Origin: a plasmid | Direction: 5' to 3' (one strand) | Sequence record: CP132210.1 | DNA length: 64,000 bases | In this document: one piece after another, positions 1,381 through 53,545 of the stretch | How the letters are laid out: the number at the start of each line of letters is the position of its first letter | How positions within the stretch are numbered: position 1 is the first letter of the stretch | Position numbers and translations under genes: made by a program | Notes under the pieces: model-generated | Databases searched by the model: none | What the model saw: only the letters and a program-made list of their open reading frames with translations | What the model was told of the DNA's origin: nothing

Positions 1381-1383
1381 GTG

Positions 1384-2099: not shown

Positions 2100-2119
2100 A
2101 CATCAAGTTAGGGTATGCC

Positions 2120-3686: not shown

Positions 3687-3757
3687 GGCTTGTTATGACT
3701 GTTTTTTTGTACAGTCTATGCCTCGGGCATCCAAGCAGCAAGCGCGTTACGCCGTGG

Positions 3758-3823
3758 GTCGATGTTTGATGTTATGGAGCAGCAACGATGTTACGCAGCA
3801 GGGCAGTCGCCCTAAAACAAAGT
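3758..3823 (+). other. attI1 recombination site, with crossover at G|TTAACC
   Basis: Sequence ...GCAGGGCAGTCGCCCTAAAACAAAG|TTAACC immediately 5' of the first cassette. Confidence 0.7.
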
Positions 3824-3832
3824 TAACCCAGG

Positions 3833-4315: not shown

Positions 4316-4526
4316 CAAAGCTATGCAATCGACGGCAAAAAGCTTCGTTCGCTTCGCGCACTACGCCTTTTCCGCGATTGATAGCGACGTTATGTGAATA
4401 TTGAAATGAGCATTCCAAAGAAAGGAAGTAGAAAAATTATCGTGGGCGAAAATGAGTTTTTGTGGCTCATTAGGTCAAAACTCACATATTCGCAGGACTG
4501 TTTAGGTACAGAAATGACTGCGGTCG

Positions 4527-4767
4527 TTGAACCGGATGCCGGTCCTCACTGATGAAGAAGTGAACACCGTACGGGAATCGTGCCGGCAGCTTGGAGCTAT
4601 CGGCCGGAACCTCAACCAGGTGGCCAGGGCCTTGAACATCGAGTTCAGGGAAAGTGACAAGCTCAAGCAAGAGGCCATCGAAAAACTGGCCGAACGGATC
4701 GACCAGCATTTGGACCATGTGTCTGAGCTGTTCGATAAGACCTGGAGCCGGTGGCACGATTGTCATT
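4527..4767 (+). pseudogene. mobC: mobC-like relaxosome accessory gene, 3'-truncated at the inverted IRt copy
   Basis: ORF MNRMPVLTDEEVNTVRESCRQLGAIGRNLNQVARALNIEF... (MobC-like RHH). Its reading frame runs into the IRt sequence at 4768. Confidence 0.55.
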
Positions 4768-4883
4768 TTCAGAAGACGACTGCACCAGTTGATTGGGCGT
4801 AATGGCTGTTGTGCAGCCAGCTCCTGACAGTTCAATATCAGAAGTGATCTGCACCAATCTCGACTATGCTCAATACTCGTGTG
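4768..4883 (+). repeat. Inverted copy of the IRt end of a Tn402-type integron (IRt 25 bp plus 91 bp) abutting IS6100, an In4-like arrangement
   Basis: TGTCATTTTCAGAAGACGACTGCAC CAGTTGATTGGGCGTAATGGCTG... up to the IS6100 IR. Its orientation is inverted relative to a normal IRt. Confidence 0.8.
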
Positions 4884-5763
4884 GGCTCTGTTGCAAAAAT
4901 CGTGAAGCTTGAGCATGCTTGGCGGAGATTGGACGGACGGAACGATGACGGATTTCAAGTGGCGCCATTTCCAGGGTGATGTGATCCTGTGGGCGGTGCG
5001 CTGGTATTGTCGCTATCCGATCAGCTATCGCGACCTTGAGGAAATGCTGGCGGAACGCGGCATTTCGGTCGACCATACGACGATCTATCGCTGGGTCCAG
5101 TGCTACGCCCCGGAGATGGAGAAGCGGCTGCGCTGGTTCTGGCGGCGTGGCTTTGATCCGAGCTGGCGCCTGGATGAAACCTACGTCAAGGTGCGGGGCA
5201 AGTGGACCTACCTGTACCGGGCAGTCGACAAGCGGGGCGACACGATCGATTTCTACCTGTCGCCGACCCGCAGCGCCAAGGCAGCGAAGCGGTTCCTGGG
5301 CAAGGCCCTGCGAGGCCTGAAGCACTGGGAAAAGCCTGCCACGCTCAATACCGACAAAGCGCCGAGCTATGGTGCAGCGATCACCGAATTGAAGCGCGAA
5401 GGAAAGCTGGACCGGGAGACGGCCCACCGGCAGGTGAAGTATCTCAATAACGTGATCGAGGCCGATCACGGAAAGCTCAAGATACTGATCAAGCCGGTGC
5501 GCGGTTTCAAATCGATCCCCACGGCCTATGCCACGATCAAGGGATTCGAAGTCATGCGAGCCCTGCGCAAAGGACAGGCTCGCCCCTGGTGCCTGCAGCC
5601 CGGCATCAGGGGCGAGGTGCGCCTTGTGGAGAGAGCTTTTGGCATTGGGCCCTCGGCGCTGACGGAGGCCATGGGCATGCTCAACCACCATTTCGCAGCA
5701 GCCGCCTGATCGGCGCAGAGCGACAGCCTACCTCTGACTGCCGCCAATCTTTGCAACAGAGCC
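4884..5763 (+). mobile_element. IS6100 (IS6 family), 880 bp
   Basis: Terminal IRs GGCTCTGTTGCAAA (4884..4897) and TTTGCAACAGAGCC (5750..5763). The transposase ORF lies inside. Confidence 0.92.
4945..5709 (+). CDS. tnpA: IS6100 transposase
   Basis: [52 protein letters not shown]... The ORF listed from 4909 carries an N-terminal extension. Confidence 0.9.
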   Translation: MTDFKWRHFQGDVILWAVRWYCRYPISYRDLEEMLAERGISVDHTTIYRWVQCYAPEMEKRLRWFWRRGFDPSWRLDETYVKVRGKWTYLYRAVDKRGDTIDFYLSPTRSAKAAKRFLGKALRGLKHWEKPATLNTDKAPSYGAAITELKREGKLDRETAHRQVKYLNNVIEADHGKLKILIKPVRGFKSIPTAYATIKGFEVMRALRKGQARPWCLQPGIRGEVRLVERAFGIGPSALTEAMGMLNHHFAAAA

Positions 5764-6201
5764 CGCCGTGCTAGTCTGCTCGGTGATGGTGGAGTGAAGC
5801 CAACCCGCAATCGGGTTATGAATCTGCATCGCGATTCGCAATCAGCTGTCTCTTGAGCATGTCGAACTCCTGCGATGTTATCTCGCCGTGCTCGTGCTGC
5901 TACACCAACTTGTCCAACTCATCCGCCACACCGCTCCCCACCACCTGCGATGGCCAGGTTGTTTGCTGGGCGCATTGGCGGAGTATCGTCTCGACCCGGG
6001 ACACCCACACCGGCACAACCTTACGGGAGTGATTCACTGTCAAAGAATCGGCCCGGTGCTCTGACGCAAGTATCGGGATGGTCACCATTTGTAAGCCGTA
6101 GACCTGAGTGGTGATCAAGACTTCGATACCACCGACCGTACCGGTACTAATCGACGACGGTCGTGTTCGTCGCCTGCCGCAGGGACTCTGCACACCTCCG
6201 T

Positions 6202-6786
6202 TTACGCATGTGCCTGGAGGAGTTGGAAATCGTCGTGTTCGGGAAACATTAAACACAGGATGGCAGCGATCTGAGCCAGCACATGATCAGCTAGCTCACC
6301 ATCCGGATCGACGGCCCACTGCATCGTCGCGCCAGCGATGACCGAGTGCAGGAGCAACTCAGCTGCCGCAGGAGCACCTGGGGGCAGTCGCTTGCGGATC
6401 CCCTCCACCACCGCGCGGTTCCGCTGGATCGCAAGCGTGCGTAGCTCCGGCACCTGGAGCTCGTACCAGGAGATGAGATAGTTCACCGAGAAGTCGTTGC
6501 GAGTGTTCATGCTCCGAACGAGCACCTGCAAAAATTCCCAGAGCCCTTGCGGCCCTGCGCCTATCGGTATCGCATTCAGGTAATGCCGCACCTGCTCGAC
6601 GCCGCGCTCCATCATCCTCACCAGCAGCGTATCGCGGTTGGTGAAGCGCTGGATTAACGCTGCGCGGGAGAGCCCCACCTCCTTTGCTACTCCGCTGAGC
6701 GTGAACTCTATGGGACCGCAACGCTTCAGCACTACGGTGGCGGCCTCGAGTACCTCGTCATCGGACTTGAGCTTGGGGCGGGGCAT
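6202..6786 (-). CDS. mphR(A): TetR-family repressor MphR(A) of the macrolide phosphotransferase operon
   Basis: 194-aa ORF MPRPKLKSDDEVLEAATVVLKRCGPIEFTLSGVAKEVGLSRAALIQRF... Last gene of the mph(A)-mrx-mphR operon and adjacent to IS6100. Confidence 0.9.
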   Translation of the reverse strand: MPRPKLKSDDEVLEAATVVLKRCGPIEFTLSGVAKEVGLSRAALIQRFTNRDTLLVRMMERGVEQVRHYLNAIPIGAGPQGLWEFLQVLVRSMNTRNDFSVNYLISWYELQVPELRTLAIQRNRAVVEGIRKRLPPGAPAAAELLLHSVIAGATMQWAVDPDGELADHVLAQIAAILCLMFPEHDDFQLLQAHA

Positions 6787-8024
6787 CAGTGTTCACCTTC
6801 TGTATGGGTTGGGGCGGAGGCTGTGGCTGCCGCCGCCATTGTAGCAAATTGAAGACGGAGCGAGAGTAGAGCCACGAGCCCCGCAAACACGGCCGATACA
6901 ACGAGGCCAGGGAGCGGACCAGCAAGGTCGACAAACGCGCCGGCCGCAAGCATAACCATGGGCGAGGCTGACAGCATCACCGCCGAGACCGTGCCGAGTA
7001 CCCGGCCGAGAAGTTCTGGCGGCGTGCGGTTGTAGATGGCAGCGTTGAGAATGGGAGAGACTGAGCCGGTCAGCAGTCCCACGAGCGCGCCCAACAACAT
7101 CAGCACCGGCACGCCTGGCAACTGTGAAAGCAGAAGCGAGCCCACCGCAGAGCCACAAAATGCCACCGCCAGCCAGTTCTGCGCTGATATCCGGGCGCCG
7201 ACCGACGCATGAATGGCAATGCCAAGGAGACCACCAGCCCCCATCATTGAGGAGAACAGCCCGAGCTCTGCTACTTGGCGTCCTGCATCTACAAACAGCG
7301 CAGGCATGATGACGCTGCCGTTGGCGCCAACGATGCCCACGAAGATCATCACTATACCAAAGAGAGGGCGCAGCAGGGGTTCGCTCCAGAGAAAAGCGAC
7401 GCCGGCGCGCATGGAGAGAGTCGCCGTCGTGGTCATCGTCCGAGCGGCACGCGCGGGAAGCACCCACGCGCCGAGCAGACCTGCAAGGACGGAGCAGAAC
7501 GCCGTCAGCCCGAGCGTTGGCGCAGCGCCAAGCAGGCCGATTGCGGCCCCCCCAAGGGCCGGGCCACCTAGAATCGCGACGTTCCCGATCACCGCTTTCA
7601 GTGACGAGACGCGCTCAACGGAGAGCCCGGCGACGTGGCCGAGTTTGGGCAGCTCACTGTCCTGCGCGGCCATACCGGGTGCGTCGAACGCGGCACCGAG
7701 CACCACGCAAGCGATCAGCCCAGTGTTCGAGAGGGCGCCAACGGCATCGAGCAGTGGGATGCTCGCCATGGCCACGCCGCCCACCACACCCGAGATCAAT
7801 GCGACGGGCGCGCGCCCGAACCGATCGACGAGGCCACCACCAACCCACGCGCCGATGATGGTCGCGATGACGCTGCTAGCGGCCGTGGCGCCCGCCCAGG
7901 CCGCGCTCTTTGTATGAGACAGGACGAACCATGGAAGCGCGAGGGCCGCCACCGCGTTGCCGATCCGGAAGAGAAAGGTCGCCGCGAACAGCGTCGCGAG
8001 CGGGCTATATCGACGTTCGCTCAT
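6786..8024 (-). CDS. mrx: MFS-type membrane protein Mrx
   Basis: 412-aa hydrophobic ORF between mph(A) and mphR(A). Confidence 0.85.
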   Translation of the reverse strand: MSERRYSPLATLFAATFLFRIGNAVAALALPWFVLSHTKSAAWAGATAASSVIATIIGAWVGGGLVDRFGRAPVALISGVVGGVAMASIPLLDAVGALSNTGLIACVVLGAAFDAPGMAAQDSELPKLGHVAGLSVERVSSLKAVIGNVAILGGPALGGAAIGLLGAAPTLGLTAFCSVLAGLLGAWVLPARAARTMTTTATLSMRAGVAFLWSEPLLRPLFGIVMIFVGIVGANGSVIMPALFVDAGRQVAELGLFSSMMGAGGLLGIAIHASVGARISAQNWLAVAFCGSAVGSLLLSQLPGVPVLMLLGALVGLLTGSVSPILNAAIYNRTPPELLGRVLGTVSAVMLSASPMVMLAAGAFVDLAGPLPGLVVSAVFAGLVALLSLRLQFATMAAAATASAPTHTEGEH

Positions 8025-8926
8025 TCCGCTGCGGCGAGCTGCGCCTTCGCCGCAGCGAGGTACTCTTCGTTACCCGAGTCGAGGGCGAAGAGTGCGTAGG
8101 TGACCGCCCCGAACGCAAGGCGCTCCGCGATGTGGTGGGCGAGCCGCGGCCACACCCGGCCACCGGCCGCTTCATACGTGAGGAGGAGCTTCGCGAGCCC
8201 CTCTTCACCAAAGACCATAAGGTGCGCGGCCATGTCGATGGCAGGGTCATCAACGCGGGCCTCGCTCCAGTCGATCATCCCGCTGACGCGCTCCGTGTTG
8301 TCGATGAGCACATGGCCCACGTAGAGATCGCCATGCACCACCACGGAGAAATCTGGCCACGACGAATCGTCGTCGAGCCAGCGCTGCCACCGGTGGAGGC
8401 GCTTGTCGTTCACCACGAACTCGCGTCGGACGCGGTCAACGTCGTCGGCCACCTTCTGACGGGCCTGCGTCGGTGTACGGATGAGCATCCCCGCATCCAC
8501 GGCGGCGGAAATGGGGACGGCATGCAGGGCGGCGAGCGCGGTCGCGAAGCTCTCCGCGAAGACCTCCGAGTCCTGCGGCACGACCCAGTCGGGCGTGGAC
8601 GAACCAGGCTGGATGACCATCGCAGTCGAGTCTTCGAGCATGGGATAGGCAACGAGCTCGGCGTTGGCCACGCGCCAGTCCGGCACCGCGAACGGCAGGC
8701 GATTCTTGAGCATTGCCAGCACCCGCGCCTCTGGTTCGACCTTCGCGCTTACCTCGGCTCGGCGCGGGATGCGCAGCACCCACCGACGTCCATCGTCGAC
8801 GGTGGCGATCACGATCCTATAGTCGAGCCCAAGCTCATTGACAGTCAGCGGGCCATGGAGCTTGAGCCCATGTCGGGCTGCAAGTGCGTACAGTTGGGAG
8901 GTATCGGCGGTCGTGACTACGGTCAT
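8021..8926 (-). CDS. mph(A): Macrolide 2'-phosphotransferase Mph(A)
   Basis: 301-aa ORF MTVVTTADTSQLYALAARHGLKLHGPLTVNELGLDYRIVIATVDDGRRWVLRIP...HGDLYVGHVLID..., matching Mph(A). Confidence 0.95.
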   Translation of the reverse strand: MTVVTTADTSQLYALAARHGLKLHGPLTVNELGLDYRIVIATVDDGRRWVLRIPRRAEVSAKVEPEARVLAMLKNRLPFAVPDWRVANAELVAYPMLEDSTAMVIQPGSSTPDWVVPQDSEVFAESFATALAALHAVPISAAVDAGMLIRTPTQARQKVADDVDRVRREFVVNDKRLHRWQRWLDDDSSWPDFSVVVHGDLYVGHVLIDNTERVSGMIDWSEARVDDPAIDMAAHLMVFGEEGLAKLLLTYEAAGGRVWPRLAHHIAERLAFGAVTYALFALDSGNEEYLAAAKAQLAAAE

Positions 8927-8995
8927 GATTCACTCCTGAGGGCTTGACGGGTTTAGCCACCTAAATGTAACAGTCACATCGGTTATATTCAATCC

Positions 8996-9815
8996 GGCAC
9001 TGTTGCAAAGTTAGCGATGAGGCAGCCTTTTGTCTTATTCAAAGGCCTTACATTTCAAAAACTCTGCTTACCAGGCGCATTTCGCCCAGGGGATCACCAT
9101 AATAAAATGCTGAGGCCTGGCCTTTGCGTAGTGCACGCATCACCTCAATACCTTTGATGGTGGCGTAAGCCGTCTTCATGGATTTAAATCCCAGCGTGGC
9201 GCCGATTATCCGTTTCAGTTTGCCATGATCGCATTCAATCACGTTGTTCCGGTACTTAATCTGTCGGTGTTCAACGTCAGACGGGCACCGGCCTTCGCGT
9301 TTGAGCAGAGCAAGCGCGCGACCATAGGCGGGCGCTTTATCCGTGTTGATGAATCGCGGGATCTGCCACTTCTTCACGTTGTTGAGGATTTTACCCAGAA
9401 ACCGGTATGCAGCTTTGCTGTTACGACGGGAGGAGAGATAAAAATCGACAGTGCGGCCCCGGCTGTCGACGGCCCGGTACAGATACGCCCAGCGGCCATT
9501 GACCTTCACGTAGGTTTCATCCATGTGCCACGGGCAAAGATCGGAAGGGTTACGCCAGTACCAGCGCAGCCGTTTTTCCATTTCAGGCGCATAACGCTGA
9601 ACCCAGCGGTAAATCGTGGAGTGATCGACATTCACTCCGCGTTCAGCCAGCATCTCCTGCAGCTCACGGTAACTGATGCCGTATTTGCAGTACCAGCGTA
9701 CGGCCCACAGAATGATGTCACGCTGAAAATGCCGGCCTTTGAATGGGTTCATGTGCAGCTCCATCAGCAAAAGGGGATGATAAGTTTATCACCACCGACT
9801 ATTTGCAACAGTGCC
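8996..9815 (-). mobile_element. IS26 copy 1 (820 bp), transposase on the minus strand
   Basis: IRs GGCACTGTTGCAAA at 8996..9009 and TTTGCAACAGTGCC at 9802..9815. Flanks ttcaatcc and aaaatggc give no 8-bp TSD. Confidence 0.97.
9048..9752 (-). CDS. tnpA: IS26 transposase Tnp26
   Basis: [54 protein letters not shown]... The listed 240-aa ORF includes 6 extra N-terminal codons. Confidence 0.97.
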
Positions 9816-11131
9816 AAAATGGCGACCACTATTGGGTAAGTGCTTATGTAACGCCAATAGCTAAGAATGGTTCGATTGTTGAATACCAGTCTGTAAGGAC
9901 CAAGCCTGAACCTGAGCAGGTTTTGGCTGCGGAAAAATTATATGCTCAATTGAGAAGCGGGAAGGCCGCGAGGCCGAAATTGGCTGCTAGCTTTTCCGTG
10001 AAAATACTCTTGCTCATATGGGGTAGTATTATATCAAGCGCAATGGCTGCCGGCATGCTTACTGATACATCAATAAGCAGCTTATTGTTAGCCACTTTAA
10101 TGTCAGGAAGCTTAAGCTCTGTTAGTGTTTTGGCTATTCTCTCTCCTCTTGGAAGACTGGTTGAAAGAGCCAGGAATATTTCCAATAACCCATTAAGTCA
10201 ATCCCTCTACACTGGGCGCACCGATGAGTTTGGCCAAATAGAGTTTGCTTTACGAATGATGCAAGCTGAAACAGGCGCCATAGTAGGTCGCATAGGTGAT
10301 GCATCAAATCGGCTTAGCGAACACACCCGAGGCCTACTAAAGGATATTGAGTCAAGCAATGTACTTACAGTTGAGCAGCAGGCAGAGACAGATCAAATAG
10401 CAACGGCAGTAAACCAAATGGTGGCAAGCATTCAAGAGGTTGCGAGCAATGCACAGCATGCTGCAGATGCGGCCGGAAGAGCAGACACTGAGACGGCATC
10501 TGGCCAGCGTCTGGTAGCCCACACAAGCCAGTCAATCACTGCCCTTGAAGGTGAAATTAGGCAAGCCACTCAGGTTATTCATGAGCTTGAAGGTCAAAGT
10601 AACGAGATATCAAAAGTTCTTGACGTTATACGAGGGATCGCCGAGCAAACGAATTTGTTGGCACTCAACGCAGCAATTGAGGCCGCGCGTGCTGGTGAGC
10701 AGGGGCGTGGTTTTGCTGTTGTCGCCGATGAGGTTCGCAGTCTTGCTGCTCGCACACAGCAATCGACAACGGATATTCAAAGCATGATCAGCGCTCTACA
10801 AGAGCGAGCGCAATCCGCTGTTACAGTCATGGAGCAAAGTAGTCGGCAAGCGCACACGAGTGTAGCTCACGCAGAGGAAGCAGCTACAGCTCTTGATGGA
10901 ATTGGCCAACGCGTTAACGAAATTACCGACATGAACGCGCAAATAGCGACTGCGGTCGAGCAGCAGGGAGCAGTAAGTGAAGACATAAACCGCAGTATTA
11001 TCAATATACGCGATGCTGCTGATACCAATGTACAGACCGGGCAGAATAATTTGCAAAGTGCGAAATCTGTCGCTCAGTTAACTAGCGCTCTGAGCGAACT
11101 GGCAAAACAGTTTTGGGAAAAACGAGGATAA
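9816..11131 (+). pseudogene. mcp: 5'-truncated methyl-accepting chemotaxis protein gene (Tn1721 orfI-like), cut by IS26
   Basis: ORF with HAMP and MCP signalling domain: ...[38 protein letters not shown]... Its N-terminal residues are read from IS26. A Tn1721-type 38-bp IR follows it. Confidence 0.8.
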
Positions 11132-11281
11132 CGCTTTTCAGTATCTCGACAGGGATAACTTACTTTACCATCGGTTATCCCTTTTAGCCGCACAAATTTT
11201 AGCCATGGCTTTTCAGGAAGTCAGGGCTATCAGAATGGCCTTAGAAAGCCTAGTCAAAGAGCTGTCACGAGAACACCGTTA

Positions 11282-11319
11282 GCTTAGCGTACGATTTTTT
11301 CCGAATTCTGCGGTTCCCC
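11282..11319 (-). repeat. Tn1721/Tn501-type 38-bp terminal inverted repeat (outer GGGG at 11319)
   Basis: Reverse complement is GGGGGAACCGCAGAATTCGGAAAAAATCGTACGCTAAG, the Tn3-family IR with an EcoRI site. Confidence 0.8.
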
Positions 11320-11458
11320 CAAAGAGGCTGCACAGCGGCGATTCTTGCCCTAAAATAGCGTAAAAAACAGCGGCAAAGCGCGATAACAACACCGGGTGTC
11401 GCCAGGGCCGTAGCCTGGGTGGTGACGCCTGGTGTGAAAAAATGGTAAGGGGAGAGCG

Positions 11459-12220
11459 GTGATTCCAATAGAACGACATCAGCGTATTTTAGCCCTGGTG
11501 GAGCAGCGTGGGGCGGTAAGCATTAACGAGCTGACGGAGATCCTCGGCGTGTCCCATATGACCATCCGTCGGGACGTCAGTAAACTGGAGGAGCAGGGGC
11601 TGCTGGTCAGCGTCTCGGGCGGCGTACGCGCCGTCAGCCGGCTGGCCGCGGAACCCAGTCATCTGGTGAAAAGCACGCTGCAGAGTGAGGAGAAACAGGC
11701 GATCGGCGCGCTGGCGGCGAGTCATATCGCTAAAAACAGTTGCATCTATCTGGATGCCGGGACTACCACCCTGGCGCTGGCGCGGGCGATCCTCGACCGG
11801 AACGATCTCCAGGTGGTCACCAATGATTTTGAGATAACCCAGCTGCTGATCGATGCCAGCCAGTGCGGCGTGATCCACACCGGCGGCACTCTGTGCCGGG
11901 AGAACCGCTCCTGCGTGGGCGAATCGGCGGCGCGTACGTTACGCCACCTGGCTATCGATACGGCCTTTATCTCCGCCAGCGGCTGGGACAGTCGCGGGAT
12001 ATTCACCCCTGATGAGAACAAGGTTACCGTCAAGGAGACCGTCAGCCAGGTCAGCGCGAGAAGCATCCTGCTGTGCGACAGTTCGAAATACAATCAGGTG
12101 GCCACGTTTATGGCGTTACCTTTGACCCGGTTCACCACCATCATTACCGACCGGCATCTTTCCGATGCCGCCGCCAGTCATATCGCCCGGCACGCCTGCG
12201 AGGTGCTGCGGGCCGGATAA
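11459..12220 (+). CDS. DeoR-family transcriptional regulator, a Klebsiella chromosomal neighbour of blaSHV
   Basis: 253-aa ORF MIPIERHQRILALVEQRGAVSINELTEILGVSHMTIRRDVSKLEEQG..., with a DeoR HTH and sugar-binding domain. Confidence 0.85.
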   Translation: MIPIERHQRILALVEQRGAVSINELTEILGVSHMTIRRDVSKLEEQGLLVSVSGGVRAVSRLAAEPSHLVKSTLQSEEKQAIGALAASHIAKNSCIYLDAGTTTLALARAILDRNDLQVVTNDFEITQLLIDASQCGVIHTGGTLCRENRSCVGESAARTLRHLAIDTAFISASGWDSRGIFTPDENKVTVKETVSQVSARSILLCDSSKYNQVATFMALPLTRFTTIITDRHLSDAAASHIARHACEVLRAG

Positions 12221-12240
12221 CGCGCGCGGCCACCGCCGGG

Positions 12241-13101
12241 TTAGCGTTGCCAGTGCTCGATCAGCGCCGCGCCGATCCCGGCGATTTGCTGATTTCGCTC
12301 GGCCATGCTCGCCGGCGTATCCCGCAGATAAATCACCACAATGCGCTCTGCTTTGTTATTCGGGCCAAGCAGGGCGACAATCCCGCGCGCACCCCGCTTG
12401 CTAGCTCCGGTCTTATCGGCGATAAACCAGCCCGCCGGCAGCACGGAGCGGATCAACGGTCCGGCGACCCGATCGTCCACCATCCACTGCAGCAGCTGCC
12501 GTTGCGAACGGGCGCTCAGACGCTGGCTGGTCAGCAGCTTGCGCAGGGTCGCGGCCATGCTGGCCGGGGTAGTGGTGTCGCGGGCGTCGCCGGGAAGCGC
12601 CTCATTCAGTTCCGTTTCCCAGCGGTCAAGGCGGGTGACGTTGTCGCCGATCTGGCGCAAAAAGGCAGTCAATCCTGCGGGGCCGCCGACGGTGGCCAGC
12701 AGCAGATTGGCGGCGCTGTTATCGCTCATGGTAATGGCGGCGGCGCAGAGTTCGCCGACCGTCATGCCGTCGGCAAGGTGTTTTTCGCTGACCGGCGAGT
12801 AGTCCACCAGATCCTGCTGGCGATAGTGGATCTTTCGCTCCAGCTGTTCGTCACCGGCATCCACCCGCGCCAGCACTGCGCCGCAGAGCACTACTTTAAA
12901 GGTGCTCATCATGGGAAAGCGTTCATCGGCGCGCCAGGCGGTCAGCGTGCGGCCGCTGGCCAGATCCATTTCTATCATGCCTACGCGGCCCGACAGCTGG
13001 CTTTCGCTTTGTTTAATTTGCTCAAGCGGCTGCGGGCTGGCGTGTACCGCCAGCGGCAGGGTGGCTAACAGGGAGATAATACACAGGCGAATATAACGCA
13101 T
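12241..13101 (-). CDS. blaSHV-12: Class A extended-spectrum beta-lactamase SHV-12 (L35Q, G238S, E240K)
   Basis: [35 protein letters not shown]... shows Q35. ...[19 protein letters not shown] shows S238 and K240. The listed ORF extends upstream spuriously to 13179. Confidence 0.92.
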
Positions 13102-13188
13102 AACCACAATACATCCTTGAGTGAAGGCCGATAAAGGCGAGTAAAGAAGCGACAAATAAGAATAACCCGGCGTTGGCACTGTTGCAAA
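13102..13188 (-). promoter_or_regulatory. IS26-derived hybrid promoter region for blaSHV
   Basis: The IS26 right end (13175..13188) lies 73 bp upstream of the blaSHV start codon. This is the arrangement known to supply a -35 box to blaSHV-2a/5/12. Confidence 0.55.
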
Positions 13189-13994
13189 TAGTCGGTGGTG
13201 ATAAACTTATCATCCCCTTTTGCTGATGGAGCTGCACATGAACCCATTCAAAGGCCGGCATTTTCAGCGTGACATCATTCTGTGGGCCGTACGCTGGTAC
13301 TGCAAATACGGCATCAGTTACCGTGAGCTGCAGGAGATGCTGGCTGAACGCGGAGTGAATGTCGATCACTCCACGATTTACCGCTGGGTTCAGCGTTATG
13401 CGCCTGAAATGGAAAAACGGCTGCGCTGGTACTGGCGTAACCCTTCCGATCTTTGCCCGTGGCACATGGATGAAACCTACGTGAAGGTCAATGGCCGCTG
13501 GGCGTATCTGTACCGGGCCGTCGACAGCCGGGGCCGCACTGTCGATTTTTATCTCTCCTCCCGTCGTAACAGCAAAGCTGCATACCGGTTTCTGGGTAAA
13601 ATCCTCAACAACGTGAAGAAGTGGCAGATCCCGCGATTCATCAACACGGATAAAGCGCCCGCCTATGGTCGCGCGCTTGCTCTGCTCAAACGCGAAGGCC
13701 GGTGCCCGTCTGACGTTGAACACCGACAGATTAAGTACCGGAACAACGTGATTGAATGCGATCATGGCAAACTGAAACGGATAATCGGCGCCACGCTGGG
13801 ATTTAAATCCATGAAGACGGCTTACGCCACCATCAAAGGTATTGAGGTGATGCGTGCACTACGCAAAGGCCAGGCCTCAGCATTTTATTATGGTGATCCC
13901 CTGGGCGAAATGCGCCTGGTAAGCAGAGTTTTTGAAATGTAAGGCCTTTGAATAAGACAAAAGGCTGCCTCATCGCTAACTTTGCAACAGTGCC
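13175..13994 (+). mobile_element. IS26 copy 2, transposase on the plus strand
   Basis: IRs at 13175..13188 and 13981..13994. Flanks ccggcgtt and cgtcttgc give no TSD. Confidence 0.97.
13238..13942 (+). CDS. tnpA: IS26 transposase
   Basis: Identical Tnp26 protein. Confidence 0.97.
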   Translation: MNPFKGRHFQRDIILWAVRWYCKYGISYRELQEMLAERGVNVDHSTIYRWVQRYAPEMEKRLRWYWRNPSDLCPWHMDETYVKVNGRWAYLYRAVDSRGRTVDFYLSSRRNSKAAYRFLGKILNNVKKWQIPRFINTDKAPAYGRALALLKREGRCPSDVEHRQIKYRNNVIECDHGKLKRIIGATLGFKSMKTAYATIKGIEVMRALRKGQASAFYYGDPLGEMRLVSRVFEM

Positions 13995-14516
13995 GTCTTG
14001 CTCACCTTGAGCCGTGTAGCGGCCTCTCGGACATTAAGCCCGTTGGCGATGTGCTCCCGCGCTCGCTGCAACTTGTCGGCGGTGACAACCGGCTTTCGCC
14101 CGCCCTTCCTCCCACGAGCGGCGGCGGCAGTCAACCCGGCCTTGGTGCGCTCGCGGATCAAGTCGCGCTCGAACTGGCCCAGCGCGCCGAACACGTGGAA
14201 GATGAGCCGCCCGCCTGGCGTGGTGGTGTCGATGGCTTCCGTCAGAGAACGGAAGCCGACGCCTCGCGCTTCCAGCGCGCCTATCGTTTCGATTAGGTGC
14301 GGCATAGAGCGCCCGAGCCGATCCAGCCGCCAGACGGCCAGCACGTCGCCGTCGCGCAGGTAGGCCAGCGCATCAGCCAAGCCGGGGCGGTCGGCCTTGG
14401 CCCCGGAAGCCGTGTCCTCGAAAACGCGCTCGCAGCCTGCCTTGCGTAGCGCATCCGTCTGCAAGGCGGTGTCCTGTTCCGCCGTCGATACCCGCGCATA
14501 GCCGATCAGTGCCATT
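13995..14516 (-). pseudogene. Serine resolvase (TniR/TnpR-like), 3'-truncated by IS26
   Basis: MALIGYARVSTAEQDTALQTDALRKAGCERVFEDTASGAKADRPGLADALAYLRDGDVLAVWRLDRLGRS... The C-terminal residues of the listed ORF are encoded by IS26. Confidence 0.8.
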
Positions 14517-14660
14517 TGCCGCCTCTCTTGTCCGTCATTCCGTCCGCCTATCTTAATGTCCGACAACCCGTTGTGCAATAACTTTGCTGGACAGTGTCCG
14601 GCATGGCCGACTAATGATCGTTTGACGGACATTGACGGTAAGGCATTTTTGCATTACTAT
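14517..14660. promoter_or_regulatory. Putative res site, an array of TGTCCG/CGGACA inverted-repeat subsites upstream of the resolvase gene
   Basis: tgtccgtcattccgtccg, taatgtccgacaa, ggacagtgtccgg and tttgacggacattgacgg in the interval between the resolvase start and the vapB-like gene. Confidence 0.5.
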
Positions 14661-14678
14661 GTGAAGCATCAACCTTGA

Positions 14679-14948
14679 TTGCGAGGGCAAACCACCATGA
14701 CCACATTGACCGTTACCGCACGGGGACAAGTGACGTTTCGGAAGGACGTACTGCAACACCTCGGCATCAGGCCAGGCGACAAGATCGAGCTGGACTTGTT
14801 GCCAGACGGTCGGGGCGTGCTCAAGGCGGCACGGCCCGCAGGGACGATAGCCAGCTTTGTCGGCCTGCTCGCGGGCAAGACGCAGAAGGTTGCCACCATC
14901 GAAGAAATCAACGAGGCGGCGGCGCAAGGCTGGGCAGGTAAGCAATGA
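14679..14948 (+). CDS. AbrB/MazE-fold antitoxin (VapB-like)
   Basis: MTTLTVTARGQVTFRKDVLQHLGIRPGDKIELDLLPDGRGVLKAA... (SpoVT/AbrB swapped-hairpin). Overlaps the PIN gene by 4 nt. The start may be 14697. Confidence 0.7.
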   Translation: MRGQTTMTTLTVTARGQVTFRKDVLQHLGIRPGDKIELDLLPDGRGVLKAARPAGTIASFVGLLAGKTQKVATIEEINEAAAQGWAGKQ

Positions 14949-15340
14949 AGGTCGCAGTCGATACCAACGTCCTTGTGCGTGCGGTTGTGCGTGACGATCC
15001 CGCACAAGCGGACGTTGCCGCCGCAGTCTTGACCGACGCCGAGTTGATCGCGGTCGCGCTGCCGTGCCTATGCGAATTTGTTTGGGTGCTGCTGCGTGTC
15101 TACGGCTTCCAGCAAGCCGACGCGGCCAGCGCGATCCGGGCACTACTGGCCGCCGCGAATGTGGAAGTGAACCGGCCTGCCGTGGAGGCTGGCTTGCTGG
15201 TGCTCGACGCGGGCGGAGACTTTGCCGATGGCGTCATTGCCTACGAAGGCAACTGGCTTGGCGGGGAAACCTTCGTTTCCTTCGATAAGAAGGCGGTGGC
15301 ACTTCTCACGGCGCAAGGGCAATCAACGCGCCTTTTGTGA
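14945..15340 (+). CDS. PIN-domain toxin (VapC-like)
   Basis: 131-aa ORF MKVAVDTNVLVRAVVRDDPAQ... with a PIN acidic-residue pattern and an antitoxin gene immediately upstream. Confidence 0.7.
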   Translation: MKVAVDTNVLVRAVVRDDPAQADVAAAVLTDAELIAVALPCLCEFVWVLLRVYGFQQADAASAIRALLAAANVEVNRPAVEAGLLVLDAGGDFADGVIAYEGNWLGGETFVSFDKKAVALLTAQGQSTRLL

Positions 15341-15888
15341 CGGACATGAGCATGAACGAATTCCGCCGACTGGCCGCGAAGATCGACCAACACATGCAGC
15401 AGCTTGCCGCCCAGGGTGTCAGCGAGGCCCATGCCATCATCAATCGCATGATGGGGTACGGGCCTGACCTGCACAGGATTTGGGTCGGCACATCCGATCA
15501 GCAGCTCATGGCGCTGTCCCGCGAGTTCCCAGGGTTCTACCGCTACGCCCGCATCATGGAAGAGGCATCCGAAGCCGAGCGCCGCAAGGCTTCGCGGCCC
15601 TATGACGGCATGGCCGAGTTCTCCGAACAGCACAAGCAAATGGGCGCGCAACTGCTGACCACGGCGGCCACGCTTGAGCGTGGCTACCAGGCGTTTCGTG
15701 CGAGCGGCAGTCTCCAAGACTTCCGGCCTCAGCTCGACGAGCTGGGCCGCCTGCATCGGCAATGGCTGTCCGACCTGGAAGCCTTCAAAGACTCGCTGCG
15801 CACGCAGGGCGCAGAACCCAAGGTGCTGGAATACGTGAACGAGGCTTTCGGCCGCCTGGCCGAGCGCATCAAGCAGCTTGCCGGTTGA
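15337..15888 (+). CDS. Hypothetical protein, 183 aa
   Basis: Intact ORF translationally coupled to vapC. No family recognised. Confidence 0.5.
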   Translation: MTDMSMNEFRRLAAKIDQHMQQLAAQGVSEAHAIINRMMGYGPDLHRIWVGTSDQQLMALSREFPGFYRYARIMEEASEAERRKASRPYDGMAEFSEQHKQMGAQLLTTAATLERGYQAFRASGSLQDFRPQLDELGRLHRQWLSDLEAFKDSLRTQGAEPKVLEYVNEAFGRLAERIKQLAG

Positions 15889-16037
15889 TCGCCGGAATTT
15901 TCGGCGGTTCCGGCTTTGTCGCGCCGTGCACAAGAGTTCTGAGCAATTCCGATCTCTCGCGGCGCTTCGTGCATAGAACTTCTGACCGTTCCCGGTCAGA
16001 AGTTCTATGCACACACGGCGGCCAGCCCAGTGAACTG

Positions 16038-16062
16038 GTGCAGTCGCCTTCTGAAAACGACA
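16038..16062 (-). repeat. Extra Tn402-family 25-bp IR-like sequence, inverted, 37 bp left of IRi of integron 2
   Basis: Reverse complement TGTCGTTTTCAGAAGGCGACTGCAC is 2 mismatches from both IRi and IRt. A 20-bp perfect hairpin at 15970..16013 precedes it. Confidence 0.6.
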
Positions 16063-16099
16063 GCGGCAGCCTGTCGCGTAACTTAGGACTTGTGCGACA

Positions 16100-16124
16100 T
16101 GTCGTTTTCAGAAGACGGCTGCAC
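16100..16124 (+). repeat. IRi of class 1 integron 2
   Basis: Exact TGTCGTTTTCAGAAGACGGCTGCAC. The following 1.35 kb is identical to 2471..3822. Confidence 0.95.
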
Positions 16125-16301
16125 TGAACGTCAGAAGCCGACTGCACTATAGCAGCGGAGGGGTTGGATCCATCAGGCAACGACGGGCTGCTGCCGGCCA
16201 TCAGCGGACGCAGGGAGGACTTTCCGCAACCGGCCGTTCGATGCGGCACCGATGGCCTTCGCGCAGGGGTAGTGAATCCGCCAGGATTGACTTGCGCTGC
16301 C

Positions 16302-18282
<1,981 letters not shown>

Positions 18283-18389
18283 CAGATGCGGCATAACAAA
18301 TCGTTGGAGCGGGACTTTTGCTACGCAGGCTGCGCCTACTCCGCAAAAGCCCCTCAACTCAGGCGTTAGGCATCACAAAGTACAGCATC

Positions 18390-18944
18390 GTGACCAACAG
18401 CAACGATTCCGTCACACTGCGCCTCATGACTGAGCATGACCTTGCGATGCTCTATGAGTGGCTAAATCGATCTCATATCGTCGAGTGGTGGGGCGGAGAA
18501 GAAGCACGCCCGACACTTGCTGACGTACAGGAACAGTACTTGCCAAGCGTTTTAGCGCAAGAGTCCGTCACTCCATACATTGCAATGCTGAATGGAGAGC
18601 CGATTGGGTATGCCCAGTCGTACGTTGCTCTTGGAAGCGGGGACGGATGGTGGGAAGAAGAAACCGATCCAGGAGTACGCGGAATAGACCAGTCACTGGC
18701 GAATGCATCACAACTGGGCAAAGGCTTGGGAACCAAGCTGGTTCGAGCACTGGTTGAGTTGCTGTTCAATGATCCCGAGGTCACCAAGATCCAAACGGAC
18801 CCGTCGCCGAGCAACTTGCGAGCGATCCGATGCTACGAGAAAGCGGGGTTTGAGAGGCAAGGTACCGTAACCACCCCAGATGGTCCAGCCGTGTACATGG
18901 TTCAAACACGCCAGGCATTCGAGCGAACACGCAGTGATGCCTAA
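18390..18944 (+). CDS. aac(6')-Ib: Aminoglycoside 6'-N-acetyltransferase AAC(6')-Ib, aacA4 cassette, Leu-to-Ser (QSLANAS) variant
   Basis: ...[40 protein letters not shown]...[21 protein letters not shown]... The cassette starts at GTTAGGC (18365). The start codon is ambiguous: TTG 18318, GTG 18390 or ATG 18426. W102 and D179 show it is not the -cr allele. Confidence 0.9.
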
Positions 18945-19014
18945 CCCTTCCATCGAGGGGGACGTCCAAGGGCTGGCGCCCTTGGCCGCCCCTCATGTCA
19001 AACGTTAGACCGCT

Positions 19015-19809
19015 ATGACAGTCGCCCTCGACGAAGTATCTGAACTAAAGAATTTGCTTTCACCCTTGTTGGATGAATGCACTTTTGAAGAAGTTGAGTA
19101 TGGTCAGTCAGATGCTCGAGTGATTCGAGTTCTATTTCCTGATCGCAATACCGCGTATCTAAAGTACGCCTCCGGATCTTCTGCTCAAGAAATTCTTCAA
19201 GAGCATCAGCGCACTAGATGGCTCAGAACACGAGCTCTCGTACCGGAAGTGATCTCATATGTCTCGACTTCAACTGTCACCATCCTGTTGACAAAAGCAT
19301 TGATTGGCCACAATGCCGCTGACGCCGCAGATGCAGATCCAGTTATTGTTGTTGCAGAGATGGCACGAGCGTTACGCGACCTCCATTCGATCTCGCCTGA
19401 CGATTGCCCATTCGACGAAAGGCTCCACCTGCGACTGAAGCTGGCTTCGGGCCGTTTGGAAGCCGGGTTAGTTGATGAGGAGGACTTTGATCACGCAAGG
19501 CAAGGCATGCTGGCGCGGGATGTTTACGAGCAACTTTTTATACAAATGCCTGGAGCGGAGCAGCTGGTAGTCACACATGGCGACGCCTGTCCCGAGAACT
19601 TCATCTTCCAAGGTAATGCCTTCGTCGGCTTCATAGACTGCGGTCGGGTCGGGCTTGCCGATAAGTATCAAGACCTGGCGCTTGCATCGAGAAACATTGA
19701 CGCGGTATTTGGACCAGAACTCACTAACCAGTTCTTCATCGAGTATGGAGAGCCAAATCCGAACATAGCTAAGATTGAGTACTACCGGATCTTGGATGAG
19801 TTCTTCTAA
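19015..19809 (+). CDS. aphA15: Aminoglycoside 3'-phosphotransferase APH(3')-XV as a gene cassette
   Basis: 264-aa ORF MTVALDEVSELKNLLSPLLDECTFEEVEYGQSDARVIRV...HGDACPENFIF...DCGRVGLADKYQDLA. APH(3') motifs are present, and it sits in a blaVIM-1-aacA4-aphA15-aadA1 array as in In70-type integrons. Confidence 0.85.
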   Translation: MTVALDEVSELKNLLSPLLDECTFEEVEYGQSDARVIRVLFPDRNTAYLKYASGSSAQEILQEHQRTRWLRTRALVPEVISYVSTSTVTILLTKALIGHNAADAADADPVIVVAEMARALRDLHSISPDDCPFDERLHLRLKLASGRLEAGLVDEEDFDHARQGMLARDVYEQLFIQMPGAEQLVVTHGDACPENFIFQGNAFVGFIDCGRVGLADKYQDLALASRNIDAVFGPELTNQFFIEYGEPNPNIAKIEYYRILDEFF

Positions 19810-19925
19810 GCGCGGTCTAACAATTCGTTCAAGCCGAGATCGCTTCGCGGCCGCGGAGTTGTTCTGTAAATTGTCACAACGCCGCGGCCGCAAAGCGCTC
19901 CGGCTTAACTCAGGCGTTAAACATC

Positions 19926-20717
19926 ATGAGGGAAGCGGTGATCGCCGAAGTATCGACTCAACTATCAGAGGTAGTTGGCGTCATCGAGCGCCATCTCGAA
20001 CCGACGTTGCTGGCCGTACATTTGTACGGCTCCGCAGTGGATGGCGGCCTGAAGCCACACAGTGATATTGATTTGCTGGTTACGGTGACCGTAAGGCTTG
20101 ATGAAACAACGCGGCGAGCTTTGATCAACGACCTTTTGGAAACTTCGGCTTCCCCTGGAGAGAGCGAGATTCTCCGCGCTGTAGAAGTCACCATTGTTGT
20201 GCACGACGACATCATTCCGTGGCGTTATCCAGCTAAGCGCGAACTGCAATTTGGAGAATGGCAGCGCAATGACATTCTTGCAGGTATCTTCGAGCCAGCC
20301 ACGATCGACATTGATCTGGCTATCTTGCTGACAAAAGCAAGAGAACATAGCGTTGCCTTGGTAGGTCCAGCGGCGGAGGAACTCTTTGATCCGGTTCCTG
20401 AACAGGATCTATTTGAGGCGCTAAATGAAACCTTAACGCTATGGAACTCGCCGCCCGACTGGGCTGGCGATGAGCGAAATGTAGTGCTTACGTTGTCCCG
20501 CATTTGGTACAGCGCAGTAACCGGCAGAATCGCGCCGAAGGATGTCGCTGCCGACTGGGCAATGGAGCGCCTGCCGGCCCAGTATCAGCCCGTCATACTT
20601 GAAGCTAGACAGGCTTATCTTGGACAAGAAGAAGATCGCTTGGCCTCGCGCGCAGATCAGTTGGAAGAATTTGTTCACTACGTGAAAGGCGAGATCACCA
20701 AGGTAGTCGGCAAATAA
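19926..20717 (+). CDS. aadA1: Aminoglycoside 3''-adenylyltransferase AadA1
   Basis: 263-aa ORF MREAVIAEVSTQLSEVVGVIERHLEPTLLAVHLYGSAVDGGLKPHSDIDLLVTV...EITKVVGK. Confidence 0.95.
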   Translation: MREAVIAEVSTQLSEVVGVIERHLEPTLLAVHLYGSAVDGGLKPHSDIDLLVTVTVRLDETTRRALINDLLETSASPGESEILRAVEVTIVVHDDIIPWRYPAKRELQFGEWQRNDILAGIFEPATIDIDLAILLTKAREHSVALVGPAAEELFDPVPEQDLFEALNETLTLWNSPPDWAGDERNVVLTLSRIWYSAVTGRIAPKDVAADWAMERLPAQYQPVILEARQAYLGQEEDRLASRADQLEEFVHYVKGEITKVVGK

Positions 20718-20769
20718 TACATGTTAGGCGACGCGTGGAGTCGCTCTAGAATTTTCGGGTACAAATTTT

Positions 20770-21402
20770 ATGACGAATTATTTTGAGAGTCCCTTCAAAG
20801 GGAAGCTTCTGACTGAGCAGGTGAAGAATCCGAACATCAAGGTAGGGCGGTATAGCTACTATTCCGGCTATTACCATGGGCACTCGTTTGATGATTGTGC
20901 TCGCTACCTTCTACCAGACCGTGATGACGTTGATCAGCTGATTATCGGCAGCTTCTGCTCCATCGGATCAGGCGCAGCTTTTATTATGGCTGGGAATCAA
21001 GGCCACCGATATGATTGGGTCTCTTCTTTCCCTTTCTTCTACATGAACGAGGAGCCCGCGTTTGCAAAATCAGTCGATGCATTCCAGCGGGCTGGCGACA
21101 CAGTTATAGGAAGTGATGTGTGGATCGGTTCGGAGGCCATGATCATGCCCGGGATCAAGATCGGGCATGGAGCGGTGATAGGTAGCCGCGCTTTGGTTGC
21201 CAAAGACGTGGAACCCTACACCATAGTGGGGGGAAACCCTGCAAAGTCGATTAGGAAGCGCTTTTCTGAAGAAGAAATTTCTATGCTTTTAGATATGGCT
21301 TGGTGGGATTGGCCGCTGGAACAAATCAAGGAAGCAATGCCTTTTCTTTGTTCGTCTGGCATTGCCAGCCTGTATCGTCGCTGGCAAGGCACAAGCGCCT
21401 AA
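20770..21402 (+). CDS. catB2: Chloramphenicol acetyltransferase CatB2 (hexapeptide xenobiotic acetyltransferase)
   Basis: 210-aa [57 protein letters not shown]... Confidence 0.9.
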
Positions 21403-21570
21403 CAATACGCTACACACGGACAAATTACTCGCTGCGCTCCTAATTTGCCGGTGAGCGTGGCGTTAGATGCACTAAGCACATAATTGCTCACAGCCAAACT
21501 ATCAGGTCAAGTCTGCTTTTATTATTTTTAAGCGTGCATAATAAGCCCTACACAAATTGGGAGATATATC

Positions 21571-21918
21571 ATGAAAGGCTGGCTTTTTCTTGTTATCGCA
21601 ATAGTTGGCGAAGTAATCGCAACATCCGCATTAAAATCTAGCGAGGGCTTTACTAAGCTTGCCCCTTCCGCCGTTGTCATAATCGGTTATGGCATCGCAT
21701 TTTATTTTCTTTCTCTGGTTCTGAAATCCATCCCTGTCGGTGTTGCTTATGCAGTCTGGTCGGGACTCGGCGTCGTCATAATTACAGCCATTGCCTGGTT
21801 GCTTCATGGGCAAAAGCTTGATGCGTGGGGCTTTGTAGGTATGGGGCTCATAATTGCTGCCTTTTTGCTCGCCCGATCCCCATCGTGGAAGTCGCTGCGG
21901 AGGCCGACGCCATGGTGA
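21571..21918 (+). CDS. qacEdelta1: Truncated SMR efflux protein QacEdelta1, start of the 3'-CS
   Basis: 115-aa [118 protein letters not shown]. Confidence 0.97.
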
Positions 21919-22751
21919 CGGTGTTCGGCATTCTGAATCTCACCGAGGACTCCTTCTTCGATGAGAGCCGGCGGCTAGACCCCGCCGGCGCTGTCACCGC
22001 GGCGATCGAAATGCTGCGAGTCGGATCAGACGTCGTGGATGTCGGACCGGCCGCCAGCCATCCGGACGCGAGGCCTGTATCGCCGGCCGATGAGATCAGA
22101 CGTATTGCGCCGCTCTTAGACGCCCTGTCCGATCAGATGCACCGTGTTTCAATCGACAGCTTCCAACCGGAAACCCAGCGCTATGCGCTCAAGCGCGGCG
22201 TGGGCTACCTGAACGATATCCAAGGATTTCCTGACCCTGCGCTCTATCCCGATATTGCTGAGGCGGACTGCAGGCTGGTGGTTATGCACTCAGCGCAGCG
22301 GGATGGCATCGCCACCCGCACCGGTCACCTTCGACCCGAAGACGCGCTCGACGAGATTGTGCGGTTCTTCGAGGCGCGGGTTTCCGCCTTGCGACGGAGC
22401 GGGGTCGCTGCCGACCGGCTCATCCTCGATCCGGGGATGGGATTTTTCTTGAGCCCCGCACCGGAAACATCGCTGCACGTGCTGTCGAACCTTCAAAAGC
22501 TGAAGTCGGCGTTGGGGCTTCCGCTATTGGTCTCGGTGTCGCGGAAATCCTTCTTGGGCGCCACCGTTGGCCTTCCTGTAAAGGATCTGGGTCCAGCGAG
22601 CCTTGCGGCGGAACTTCACGCGATCGGCAATGGCGCTGACTACGTCCGCACCCACGCGCCTGGAGATCTGCGAAGCGCAATCACCTTCTCGGAAACCCTC
22701 GCGAAATTTCGCAGTCGCGACGCCAGAGACCGAGGGTTAGATCATGCCTAG
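21912..22751 (+). CDS. sul1: Sulfonamide-resistant dihydropteroate synthase Sul1
   Basis: [51 protein letters not shown]..., 279 aa. The listed ORF starts 29 codons upstream. Confidence 0.97.
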
Positions 22752-26062: not shown

Positions 26063-26882
26063 GGCACTGTTGCAAAGTTAGCGATGAGGCAGCCTTTTGT
26101 CTTATTCAAAGGCCTTACATTTCAAAAACTCTGCTTACCAGGCGCATTTCGCCCAGGGGATCACCATAATAAAATGCTGAGGCCTGGCCTTTGCGTAGTG
26201 CACGCATCACCTCAATACCTTTGATGGTGGCGTAAGCCGTCTTCATGGATTTAAATCCCAGCGTGGCGCCGATTATCCGTTTCAGTTTGCCATGATCGCA
26301 TTCAATCACGTTGTTCCGGTACTTAATCTGTCGGTGTTCAACGTCAGACGGGCACCGGCCTTCGCGTTTGAGCAGAGCAAGCGCGCGACCATAGGCGGGC
26401 GCTTTATCCGTGTTGATGAATCGCGGGATCTGCCACTTCTTCACGTTGTTGAGGATTTTACCCAGAAACCGGTATGCAGCTTTGCTGTTACGACGGGAGG
26501 AGAGATAAAAATCGACAGTGCGGCCCCGGCTGTCGACGGCCCGGTACAGATACGCCCAGCGGCCATTGACCTTCACGTAGGTTTCATCCATGTGCCACGG
26601 GCAAAGATCGGAAGGGTTACGCCAGTACCAGCGCAGCCGTTTTTCCATTTCAGGCGCATAACGCTGAACCCAGCGGTAAATCGTGGAGTGATCGACATTC
26701 ACTCCGCGTTCAGCCAGCATCTCCTGCAGCTCACGGTAACTGATGCCGTATTTGCAGTACCAGCGTACGGCCCACAGAATGATGTCACGCTGAAAATGCC
26801 GGCCTTTGAATGGGTTCATGTGCAGCTCCATCAGCAAAAGGGGATGATAAGTTTATCACCACCGACTATTTGCAACAGTGCC
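26063..26882 (-). mobile_element. IS26 copy 3; replaces IRt and about 85 bp of the tni end
   Basis: IRs at 26063..26076 and 26869..26882. The flank atctcgactatgctcaatactcgtgtgcacc is internal tni-end sequence, and the IRt TGTCATTTTCAGAAGACGACTGCAC is absent. Confidence 0.97.
26115..26819 (-). CDS. tnpA: IS26 transposase
   Basis: Identical Tnp26. Confidence 0.97.
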   Translation of the reverse strand: MNPFKGRHFQRDIILWAVRWYCKYGISYRELQEMLAERGVNVDHSTIYRWVQRYAPEMEKRLRWYWRNPSDLCPWHMDETYVKVNGRWAYLYRAVDSRGRTVDFYLSSRRNSKAAYRFLGKILNNVKKWQIPRFINTDKAPAYGRALALLKREGRCPSDVEHRQIKYRNNVIECDHGKLKRIIGATLGFKSMKTAYATIKGIEVMRALRKGQASAFYYGDPLGEMRLVSRVFEM

Positions 26883-32406: not shown

Positions 32407-32673
32407 GGGGTCGCTTCAGAATTCGGAAATTAAAGCACGTTAAGAGATCCGATACCCAGCAACTGCGCGGCTTTGCGCAAGCTGCCAACCCCTAGAAACA
32501 GCATTTTCGTGGTTCTCGAAACTCGGCTGTTTCAGCCGTGCAATATGAGAGTGGTTTTCGAGAAAGCAACATGCCATACCAGCACTAGCGCGGATCTGAT
32601 TCTCATTGAAGCCTCTCAAAAACGATCGTTTGCGAGAAGCTAGACCATGCCAGCGGCTTACCGTACGATTTTT
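32407..32673 (+). mobile_element. TIME-like (Tn3-derived inverted-repeat miniature) element: 38-bp IR, 212 bp interior, then the inner 17 bp of a second IR; interrupted by IS5075
   Basis: Left IR GGGGTCGCTTCAGAATTCGGAAATTAAAGCACGTTAAG at 32407..32444. At 32657..32673, cttaccgtacgattttt is the reverse complement of AAAAATCGTACGGTAAG, the inner part of a Tn501/Tn1721-type IR. IS5075 abuts it exactly at its known IR target position. No coding capacity between the IRs. Confidence 0.55.
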
Positions 32674-53544: not shown

Positions 53545-53545
53545 G

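Follow-up and report, generated by a model that had tools for sequence, protein, structure and literature searches.

Judged by its sequence, the aacA4-type gene in the VIM-1 integron of this plasmid (sequence record CP132210.1) is the exact AAC(6')-Ib4 allele, with serine at the Leu/Ser specificity switch, residue 102. We consider it very probable that the gene is best explained as a class 1 integron cassette driven by a PcH1-type promoter and conferring the AAC(6')-II resistance pattern, that is, gentamicin resistance without amikacin resistance. The finding is not new: the allele occurs widely, has a name, is curated with regard to its gentamicin phenotype and has been characterised experimentally as a class. 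Coordinates below are positions in the window, by which we mean the whole 64,000-nucleotide stretch of DNA that was analysed.

The gene lies on the plus strand at 18390-18944, from a GTG at 18390 to a TAA at 18942-18944, and encodes 184 amino acids. A preliminary description of this DNA had reported a serine in the QSLANAS motif of aac(6')-Ib, and this is borne out: the 11-residue switch motif (GIDQSLAN...) begins at residue 98 of the 184-residue coding sequence, in frame 2 within 18650-18720, and its serine, residue 102, is encoded by TCA at 18693-18695 (plus strand), following the CAG codon of Gln101 at 18690-18692 (plus strand). Alignments to PDB chains and to AAC(6')-Ib reference alleles place this serine at the specificity-determining position. 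Because several numbering schemes are in use, note that residues of the 184-residue form correspond to those of the 199-residue -cr numbering when 15 is added (W102, S117, D179) and to the classical AF479774 numbering of reviews when 17 is added (W104, S119, D181), so that Ser102 here is residue 117 in the former and 119 in the latter. In a phmmer comparison with PDB chains, the change from Leu to Ser was the sole mismatch across all 184 residues to AAC(6')-Ib as crystallised in 1V0C, 2BUE and 2VQY, and Ser102 shares its alignment column with the serine of AAC(6')-Ib11, where 2PR8 reads GIDLSLAN. Since TCA versus TTA is a single-nucleotide state, chance statistics are inapplicable to it.

With regard to family membership and name, the protein scores 434.1 bits against the NCBIfam model NF033074 (AAC_6p_Ib), for which the curated cutoff is 400 bits, and its residues 1-184 align to profile positions 1-184. 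The exact 184-residue protein carries the name AAC(6')-Ib4 in the protein collection, in which the leucine form is named AAC(6')-Ib3. Identical DNA in twin plasmids is annotated as WP_003159191.1, 'aminoglycoside N-acetyltransferase AAC(6')-Ib4', with a 100% AMRFinderPlus call, and the window protein is indeed identical to that reference at 184 of 184 residues (WP_003159191.1/AAF72941.1, from AF231133), including W87, Q101, S102, D164 and D183. They agree in cassette form and in the W87/Q101/S102/D164 motif and show no protein-level difference, and the allele thus bears a name from the 'type I' series with a reported phenotype of type II. The earlier advice that the gene should not be annotated as plain aacA4 has in part been overtaken, in that public annotation of identical DNA already reads AAC(6')-Ib4; papers still write 'aacA4'.

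The preliminary description had gone on to assign the enzyme to the AAC(6')-Ib' class. As a functional class this holds, because the NCBI reference for AAC(6')-Ib' (WP_014454105.1) likewise has serine at 102 (classical 119). As an exact allele it does not: the reference carries Val183 where the window protein carries Asp183, and with this one residue between them the exact name is Ib4 rather than Ib'. AAC(6')-Ib' itself reportedly came originally from P. fluorescens BM2687, in work attributed to Lambert in 1994.

Two further members of the family were considered and rejected. AAC(6')-Ib-cr belongs to the same gene family and cassette type but requires W87R and D164Y (W102R and D179Y in its own numbering) and has Leu102, whereas the window gene keeps a wild-type tryptophan (residue 87, W102 or W104 in other numberings; TGG at 18648-18650, plus strand) and a wild-type aspartate (residue 164, D179 or D181; GAT at 18879-18881, plus strand) alongside Ser102, in agreement with the earlier statement, whose residue equivalences are correct, that this is no -cr allele. 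AAC(6')-Ib11, known as 'subtype IV', requires Q101L in addition to L102S; it has Ser102 in common with the window protein, in which Q101 is retained, and the gene is therefore not Ib11. AAC(6')-Ib3, or AAC(6')-Ib in its crystallised form (PDB 1V0C, 2BUE, 2VQY), shares 183 of 184 residues (99.5%) with the window protein as well as fold and chemistry, and differs in having Leu102 and an amikacin-type (subtype I) phenotype. Somewhat further afield, AAC(6')-31 (82% identity) and AAC(6')-IIc (74% identity) have serine in the switch column of the allele alignment, and leucine is therefore the exceptional state within the wider clade. As an aside, the 90%-identity protein cluster that contains AAC(6')-Ib3 and Ib4 also includes short partial sequences under the names 'NAD(+)--rifampin ADP-ribosyltransferase' or ARR-2, probably fragmentary open reading frames across cassette junctions that are misclustered or misnamed, a database oddity.

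Given that only a single base (TCA versus TTA) distinguishes the two forms, one might suspect that the C at 18694 arose through faulty sequencing or assembly and that the true allele is the leucine form AAC(6')-Ib3, of amikacin type. We found nothing else in favour of this suspicion and regard it as vanishingly improbable. The 6450-bp integron is found at 100.0% identity (as printed, with bit scores near the maximum) in at least 19 plasmids of Enterobacter, Escherichia, Klebsiella and Citrobacter, and because these are independently sequenced records from several genera and countries a read error is ruled out. Nor is the serine codon rare. Scanning one genome per bacterial species with a 39-mer that spans the site and has Y in place of the variable base yielded 36 matches, 26 of them with TCA (Ser) and 10 with TTA (Leu). 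The 26 serine genomes are mostly Pseudomonas, Comamonas, Brevundimonas, Stenotrophomonas, Acinetobacter and other non-Enterobacterales, along with two actinobacteria; those with leucine are Enterobacterales except for one Vibrio, and six of the 10 are -cr. According to a published survey, the Ib4 class is present in 4250 genomes of Enterobacterales, 2247 of P. aeruginosa and 4434 of A. baumannii, and in the latter two species it is the commonest aac(6') (PMC11672645). Serine is the commoner state, and our scan agrees with those counts.

How would the serine be expected to alter the enzyme? The enzyme belongs to the GNAT acetyltransferases and uses acetyl-CoA to acetylate aminoglycosides at their 6'-amino group. 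Serine instead of leucine at residue 102 (classical 119), beside Gln101 in the aminoglycoside-binding region, would give rise to the AAC(6')-II resistance pattern, in which gentamicin would be covered, including its C6'-methylated major congeners C1 and C2, and 1-N-acylated amikacin would not; most sources add tobramycin and kanamycin to the spectrum. That the window allele belongs to this phenotypic class (gentamicin yes, amikacin no) is supported by the literature on enzymes with the same motif, as is the earlier contention that the Leu-to-Ser change gives gentamicin rather than amikacin resistance (PMC3656343, PMC11672645, NCBI AMRFinder preprint). Table 2 of PMC3656343 lists L119S (AAC(6')-Ib'/Ib7/Ib8) as 'Gm-r Ak-s', citing Rather 1992, Lambert 1994 and Casin 2003. 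In a systematic comparison that sorted Ib-family sequences by residues 87, 101, 102 and 164, WP_003159191.1 fell into the W87/Q101/S102/D164 class along with Ib'; when a member of that motif class (WP_013250882, not WP_003159191.1 itself) was cloned in E. coli DH5alpha and expressed from a defined promoter, gentamicin susceptibility fell and amikacin susceptibility was unchanged, which is the AAC(6')-II pattern (PMC11672645). Three clinical E. coli in which Ib4 was the only aminoglycoside gene likewise displayed the subtype II phenotype (PMC11672645). The NCBI AMRFinder preprint describes Ib4 as the Ib-family member giving gentamicin but not amikacin resistance. On tobramycin the sources disagree: subtype II enzymes including Ib4 are said to inactivate it (PMC11672645), whereas the NCBI AMRFinder preprint credits Ib4 with no tobramycin effect. 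That type I enzymes fail on gentamicin is put down to the C6'-methyl group of the major congeners C1 and C2 (PMC11672645). The structural rationale offered earlier for the specificity switch is criticised in the same study.

A broader spectrum might also be entertained, in which the enzyme keeps useful amikacin activity besides its activity on gentamicin, much like the 'subtype IV' enzyme AAC(6')-Ib11. The two proteins do share the serine, and Ser119 variants are said, in work by Casin and colleagues in 1998, to have acetylated amikacin in vitro while the cells remained susceptible. However, it is the additional Q101L of Ib11, absent here, that is credited with a loop rearrangement and a combined gentamicin/amikacin spectrum. 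The double mutant Q118L + L119S (Ib11) is scored 'Gm-r Ak-r' (PMC3656343). Moreover, the cloned Q101/S102 enzyme produced no amikacin MIC shift, all 16 of the 16 Ib4-positive Salmonella tested were amikacin-susceptible (NCBI AMRFinder preprint), and hosts with the same cassette array as the window have amikacin MICs of <=2 mg/L (see below). Useful amikacin activity is thus very unlikely, and we retain the AAC(6')-II pattern as the predicted phenotype.

The gene sits in a class 1 integron at 16302-22751 (6450 bp) comprising intI1, blaVIM-1, aacA4, aphA15, aadA1, catB2, qacEdelta1 and sul1. The integrase gene intI1 (337 aa) occupies 16302-17315 on the minus strand, as indicated by its open reading frame and by the annotation of identical DNA. 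All subsequent elements are on the plus strand. The blaVIM-1 cassette comes first, at 17452-18365 (junctions G|TTATGCC at 17451/17452 and G|TTAGGC at 18365/18366), and contains the 266-residue blaVIM-1 coding sequence at 17482-18282, starting from ATG 17482 (NF012100, 591.9 bits; identical DNA is annotated as VIM-1 at 100%). A listed open reading frame of 345 residues that runs from 17245 to 18282, through attI1 into blaVIM-1, was discarded as an artefactual upstream extension, the 266-residue sequence being the full-length match to the blaVIM model. The aacA4 (aac(6')-Ib4) cassette follows in second position at 18366-19004 (639 bp), bounded by core junctions G|TTAGGC at 18365/18366 and G|TTAGAC at 19004/19005. 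Its attC (18939-19010; R'' GCCTAAC ... R' GTTAGAC) overlaps the stop codon, and the bottom strand folds into an imperfect hairpin of -23.5 kcal/mol (z = -5.1; none of 200 shuffled sequences was as stable). The aacA4 unit thus has what defines a class 1 cassette: a single open reading frame, GTTRRRY core sites, an imperfect-palindrome attC at its 3' end, and intI1, attI1 and Pc upstream. Then come aphA15, or aph(3')-XV (19015-19809; NF033063, 620.2 bits), aadA1 (19926-20717; NF033126, 596.7 bits against a cutoff of 587), catB2 (20770-21402; NF000490, 440.1 bits; CatB2 in identical DNA) and, as read from open reading frames and the annotation of identical DNA, the 3'-conserved segment at 21571-22751, with qacEdelta1 at 21571-21918 and sul1 at 21912-22751.

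The array blaVIM-1-aacA4-aphA15-aadA1-catB2 is that of the In70/In916-type blaVIM-1 integrons of pOW16C2, pEco15-1, pCf-VIM and p5955A. The 5'- and 3'-conserved segments match at 100.0% as printed, the flanking IncA resistance region also matches, and no difference from these plasmids was found within the integron (identity as printed). We take the integron number to be In916.

Whether the allele matters for its host depends not only on what the enzyme acetylates but also on how much of it is made. The cassette is promoterless, and its transcription must start from a Pc cassette promoter inside intI1 and reach aac(6')-Ib4 second, after blaVIM-1. This promoter, at 17200-17228 on the plus strand, consists of a -35 element TGGACA (17200-17205), a 17-nt spacer and a -10 element TAAACT (17223-17228) and drives all cassettes; we take the combination to be the PcH1 variant, of intermediate-to-weak strength. 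The P2 site at 17319-17344 (plus strand; TTGTTA and TACAGT, with a hand-counted spacer of 14 nt) lacks the GGG insertion and is presumably inactive. There are three candidate starts for aacA4: a TTG at 18318, which would give 208 residues and extends into the attC of blaVIM-1, the GTG at 18390 (184 residues) and an ATG at 18426 (172 residues). On inspection of the sequence upstream of GTG 18390 and of ATG 18426, no Shine-Dalgarno-like sequence was seen. Taken together, the PcH1 promoter, the presumably inactive P2, the second cassette position and the lack of a clear ribosome-binding site suggest that aacA4 expression in this array is probably low, so that the shift in gentamicin MIC may be modest in an Enterobacterales host.

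The TTG start deserves comment, because a GGAG (18306-18309) lies 8 nt upstream of the in-frame TTG at 18318, inside the blaVIM-1 attC, and because RGI labels the longer, TTG-initiated open reading frame in twin plasmids 'AAC(6')-Ib8' (94.69%). Conceivably, then, the product made here is a context-specific 208-residue form with an N-terminal extension contributed by the upstream cassette, a suggestion we regard as rather unlikely. If it were true, the neighbouring cassette would, besides the Ser102 switch, set the level of gentamicin resistance.

Published MICs for hosts of the same array fit low expression. K. pneumoniae isolates with an IncA/C1 plasmid carrying this cassette array had a gentamicin MIC of 4 mg/L, scored as resistant, and an amikacin MIC of <=2 mg/L, with aadA1, aphA15 and aacA4 as their only aminoglycoside genes (PMC5675864). 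In an E. coli J53 transconjugant the values were <=1 mg/L for gentamicin, which is indistinguishable from the recipient at the lower limit of the assay, and <=2 mg/L for amikacin (PMC5675864). In E. coli, therefore, this integron would have at most a small effect on gentamicin susceptibility. Note that for the plasmid concerned (pIncAC_KP4898, KY882285) the allele is deduced from the paper, which describes the array as identical to the one in pOW16C2, for which we confirmed Ib4. The IncA VIM-1 plasmids of PMC10741216 have a different array (blaVIM-1-aacA4-qnrVC6-arr2-ant1) and were left out of the comparison.

These same data invite a stronger claim, namely that aacA4 is expressed so weakly here that it is near-silent for gentamicin in Enterobacterales and that calling the plasmid 'gentamicin-resistant' would be an overcall. 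The PcH1 promoter and the presumably inactive P2 point in this direction, as do the second cassette position, behind a structured attC, the lack of a Shine-Dalgarno-like sequence before GTG 18390 or ATG 18426, and the low gentamicin MICs of the transconjugant and even of the K. pneumoniae donors. So does the observation that tobramycin and kanamycin A are inactivated with much higher efficiency than either gentamicin or amikacin (PMC11672645). Against it, a MIC of 4 mg/L counted as resistant in the donors, whose sole candidate gentamicin determinant was aacA4, the three clinical E. coli with Ib4 as their sole aminoglycoside gene did show subtype II, and a reading of '<=1' is compatible with a two- to four-fold rise from a baseline of 0.25-0.5. 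We judge near-silence to be possible, perhaps a one-in-several prospect, and continue to favour a PcH1-driven cassette with low expression and the AAC(6')-II pattern.

Could gentamicin resistance be encoded elsewhere in the window? The other aminoglycoside genes present are aphA15, aadA1, aph(6)-Id and aph(3'')-Ib, and in the annotated twins covering the window neither a gentamicin-modifying gene of the aac(3) or ant(2'') type nor a 16S methyltransferase is listed. A second gentamicin-resistance gene in the window was rejected on these grounds, and any plasmid-borne gentamicin effect would therefore come from aac(6')-Ib4.

The VIM-1 integron is placed in the resistance region of an IncA-type plasmid. 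Window positions 1-16300 are 99.994% identical to pCf-VIM, 16100-47000 match p5955A except for a 193-bp gap, and 47001-64000 are IncA transfer backbone. The gap lies at 38181/38182, where the window lacks 193 bp that are present in the otherwise 99.99%-identical p5955A (26086-26278 of the compared stretch). It is flanked by a recombinase gene and a gene of the 'pRiA4b ORF-3 family' and lies downstream of qnrS1 (about 36443-37099). Upstream of the VIM-1 integron is a second class 1 integron, with intI1 at 2673-3686 (minus strand), a dfrA14 cassette at 3842-4312 and, after it, IS6100 at 4945-5709. The 5'-conserved segments of this integron (2471-3825) and of the VIM-1 integron (16100-17454) form a direct duplication of 1355 bp with 100% identity, through which the two integrons have a ready substrate for homologous recombination. 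The resistance region is an IS26 mosaic, with five copies at 8996-9815, 13175-13994, 26063-26882, 35171-35990 and 47659-48478; one pair encloses blaSHV-12 (12241-13101, minus strand) in a composite unit, and another pair lies on either side of a mer/Tus-like/ISAs22 segment. Two IS5075/IS4321-like elements, about 92% identical and in opposite orientation, occupy 32639-33575 and 44982-45917; the former has no listed feature in the PLSDB gene table of a twin plasmid. In the VIM-1 integron, intI1 has directly upstream of it a toxin-antitoxin pair (14697-15340), made up of a VapC toxin and an AbrB/MazE-family antitoxin, and a hypothetical gene of 178 residues (15352-15888). The Pseudomonas-type accessions of the proteins encoded at 14697-15888 are consistent with a non-fermenter origin of the integron module.

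What, then, does the serine mean in practice? NCBI AMRFinderPlus and the 2024 systematic study already capture the Ser102 phenotype, and therefore nothing new is learned. The practical value lies in correct genotype-to-phenotype prediction, since the labels 'Ib4' and 'aacA4' both conceal a type II phenotype. For a VIM-1 plasmid with a Ser102 'aacA4', gentamicin should be reported as compromised and amikacin as usable, the reverse of what 'aac(6')-Ib/aacA4' usually conveys.
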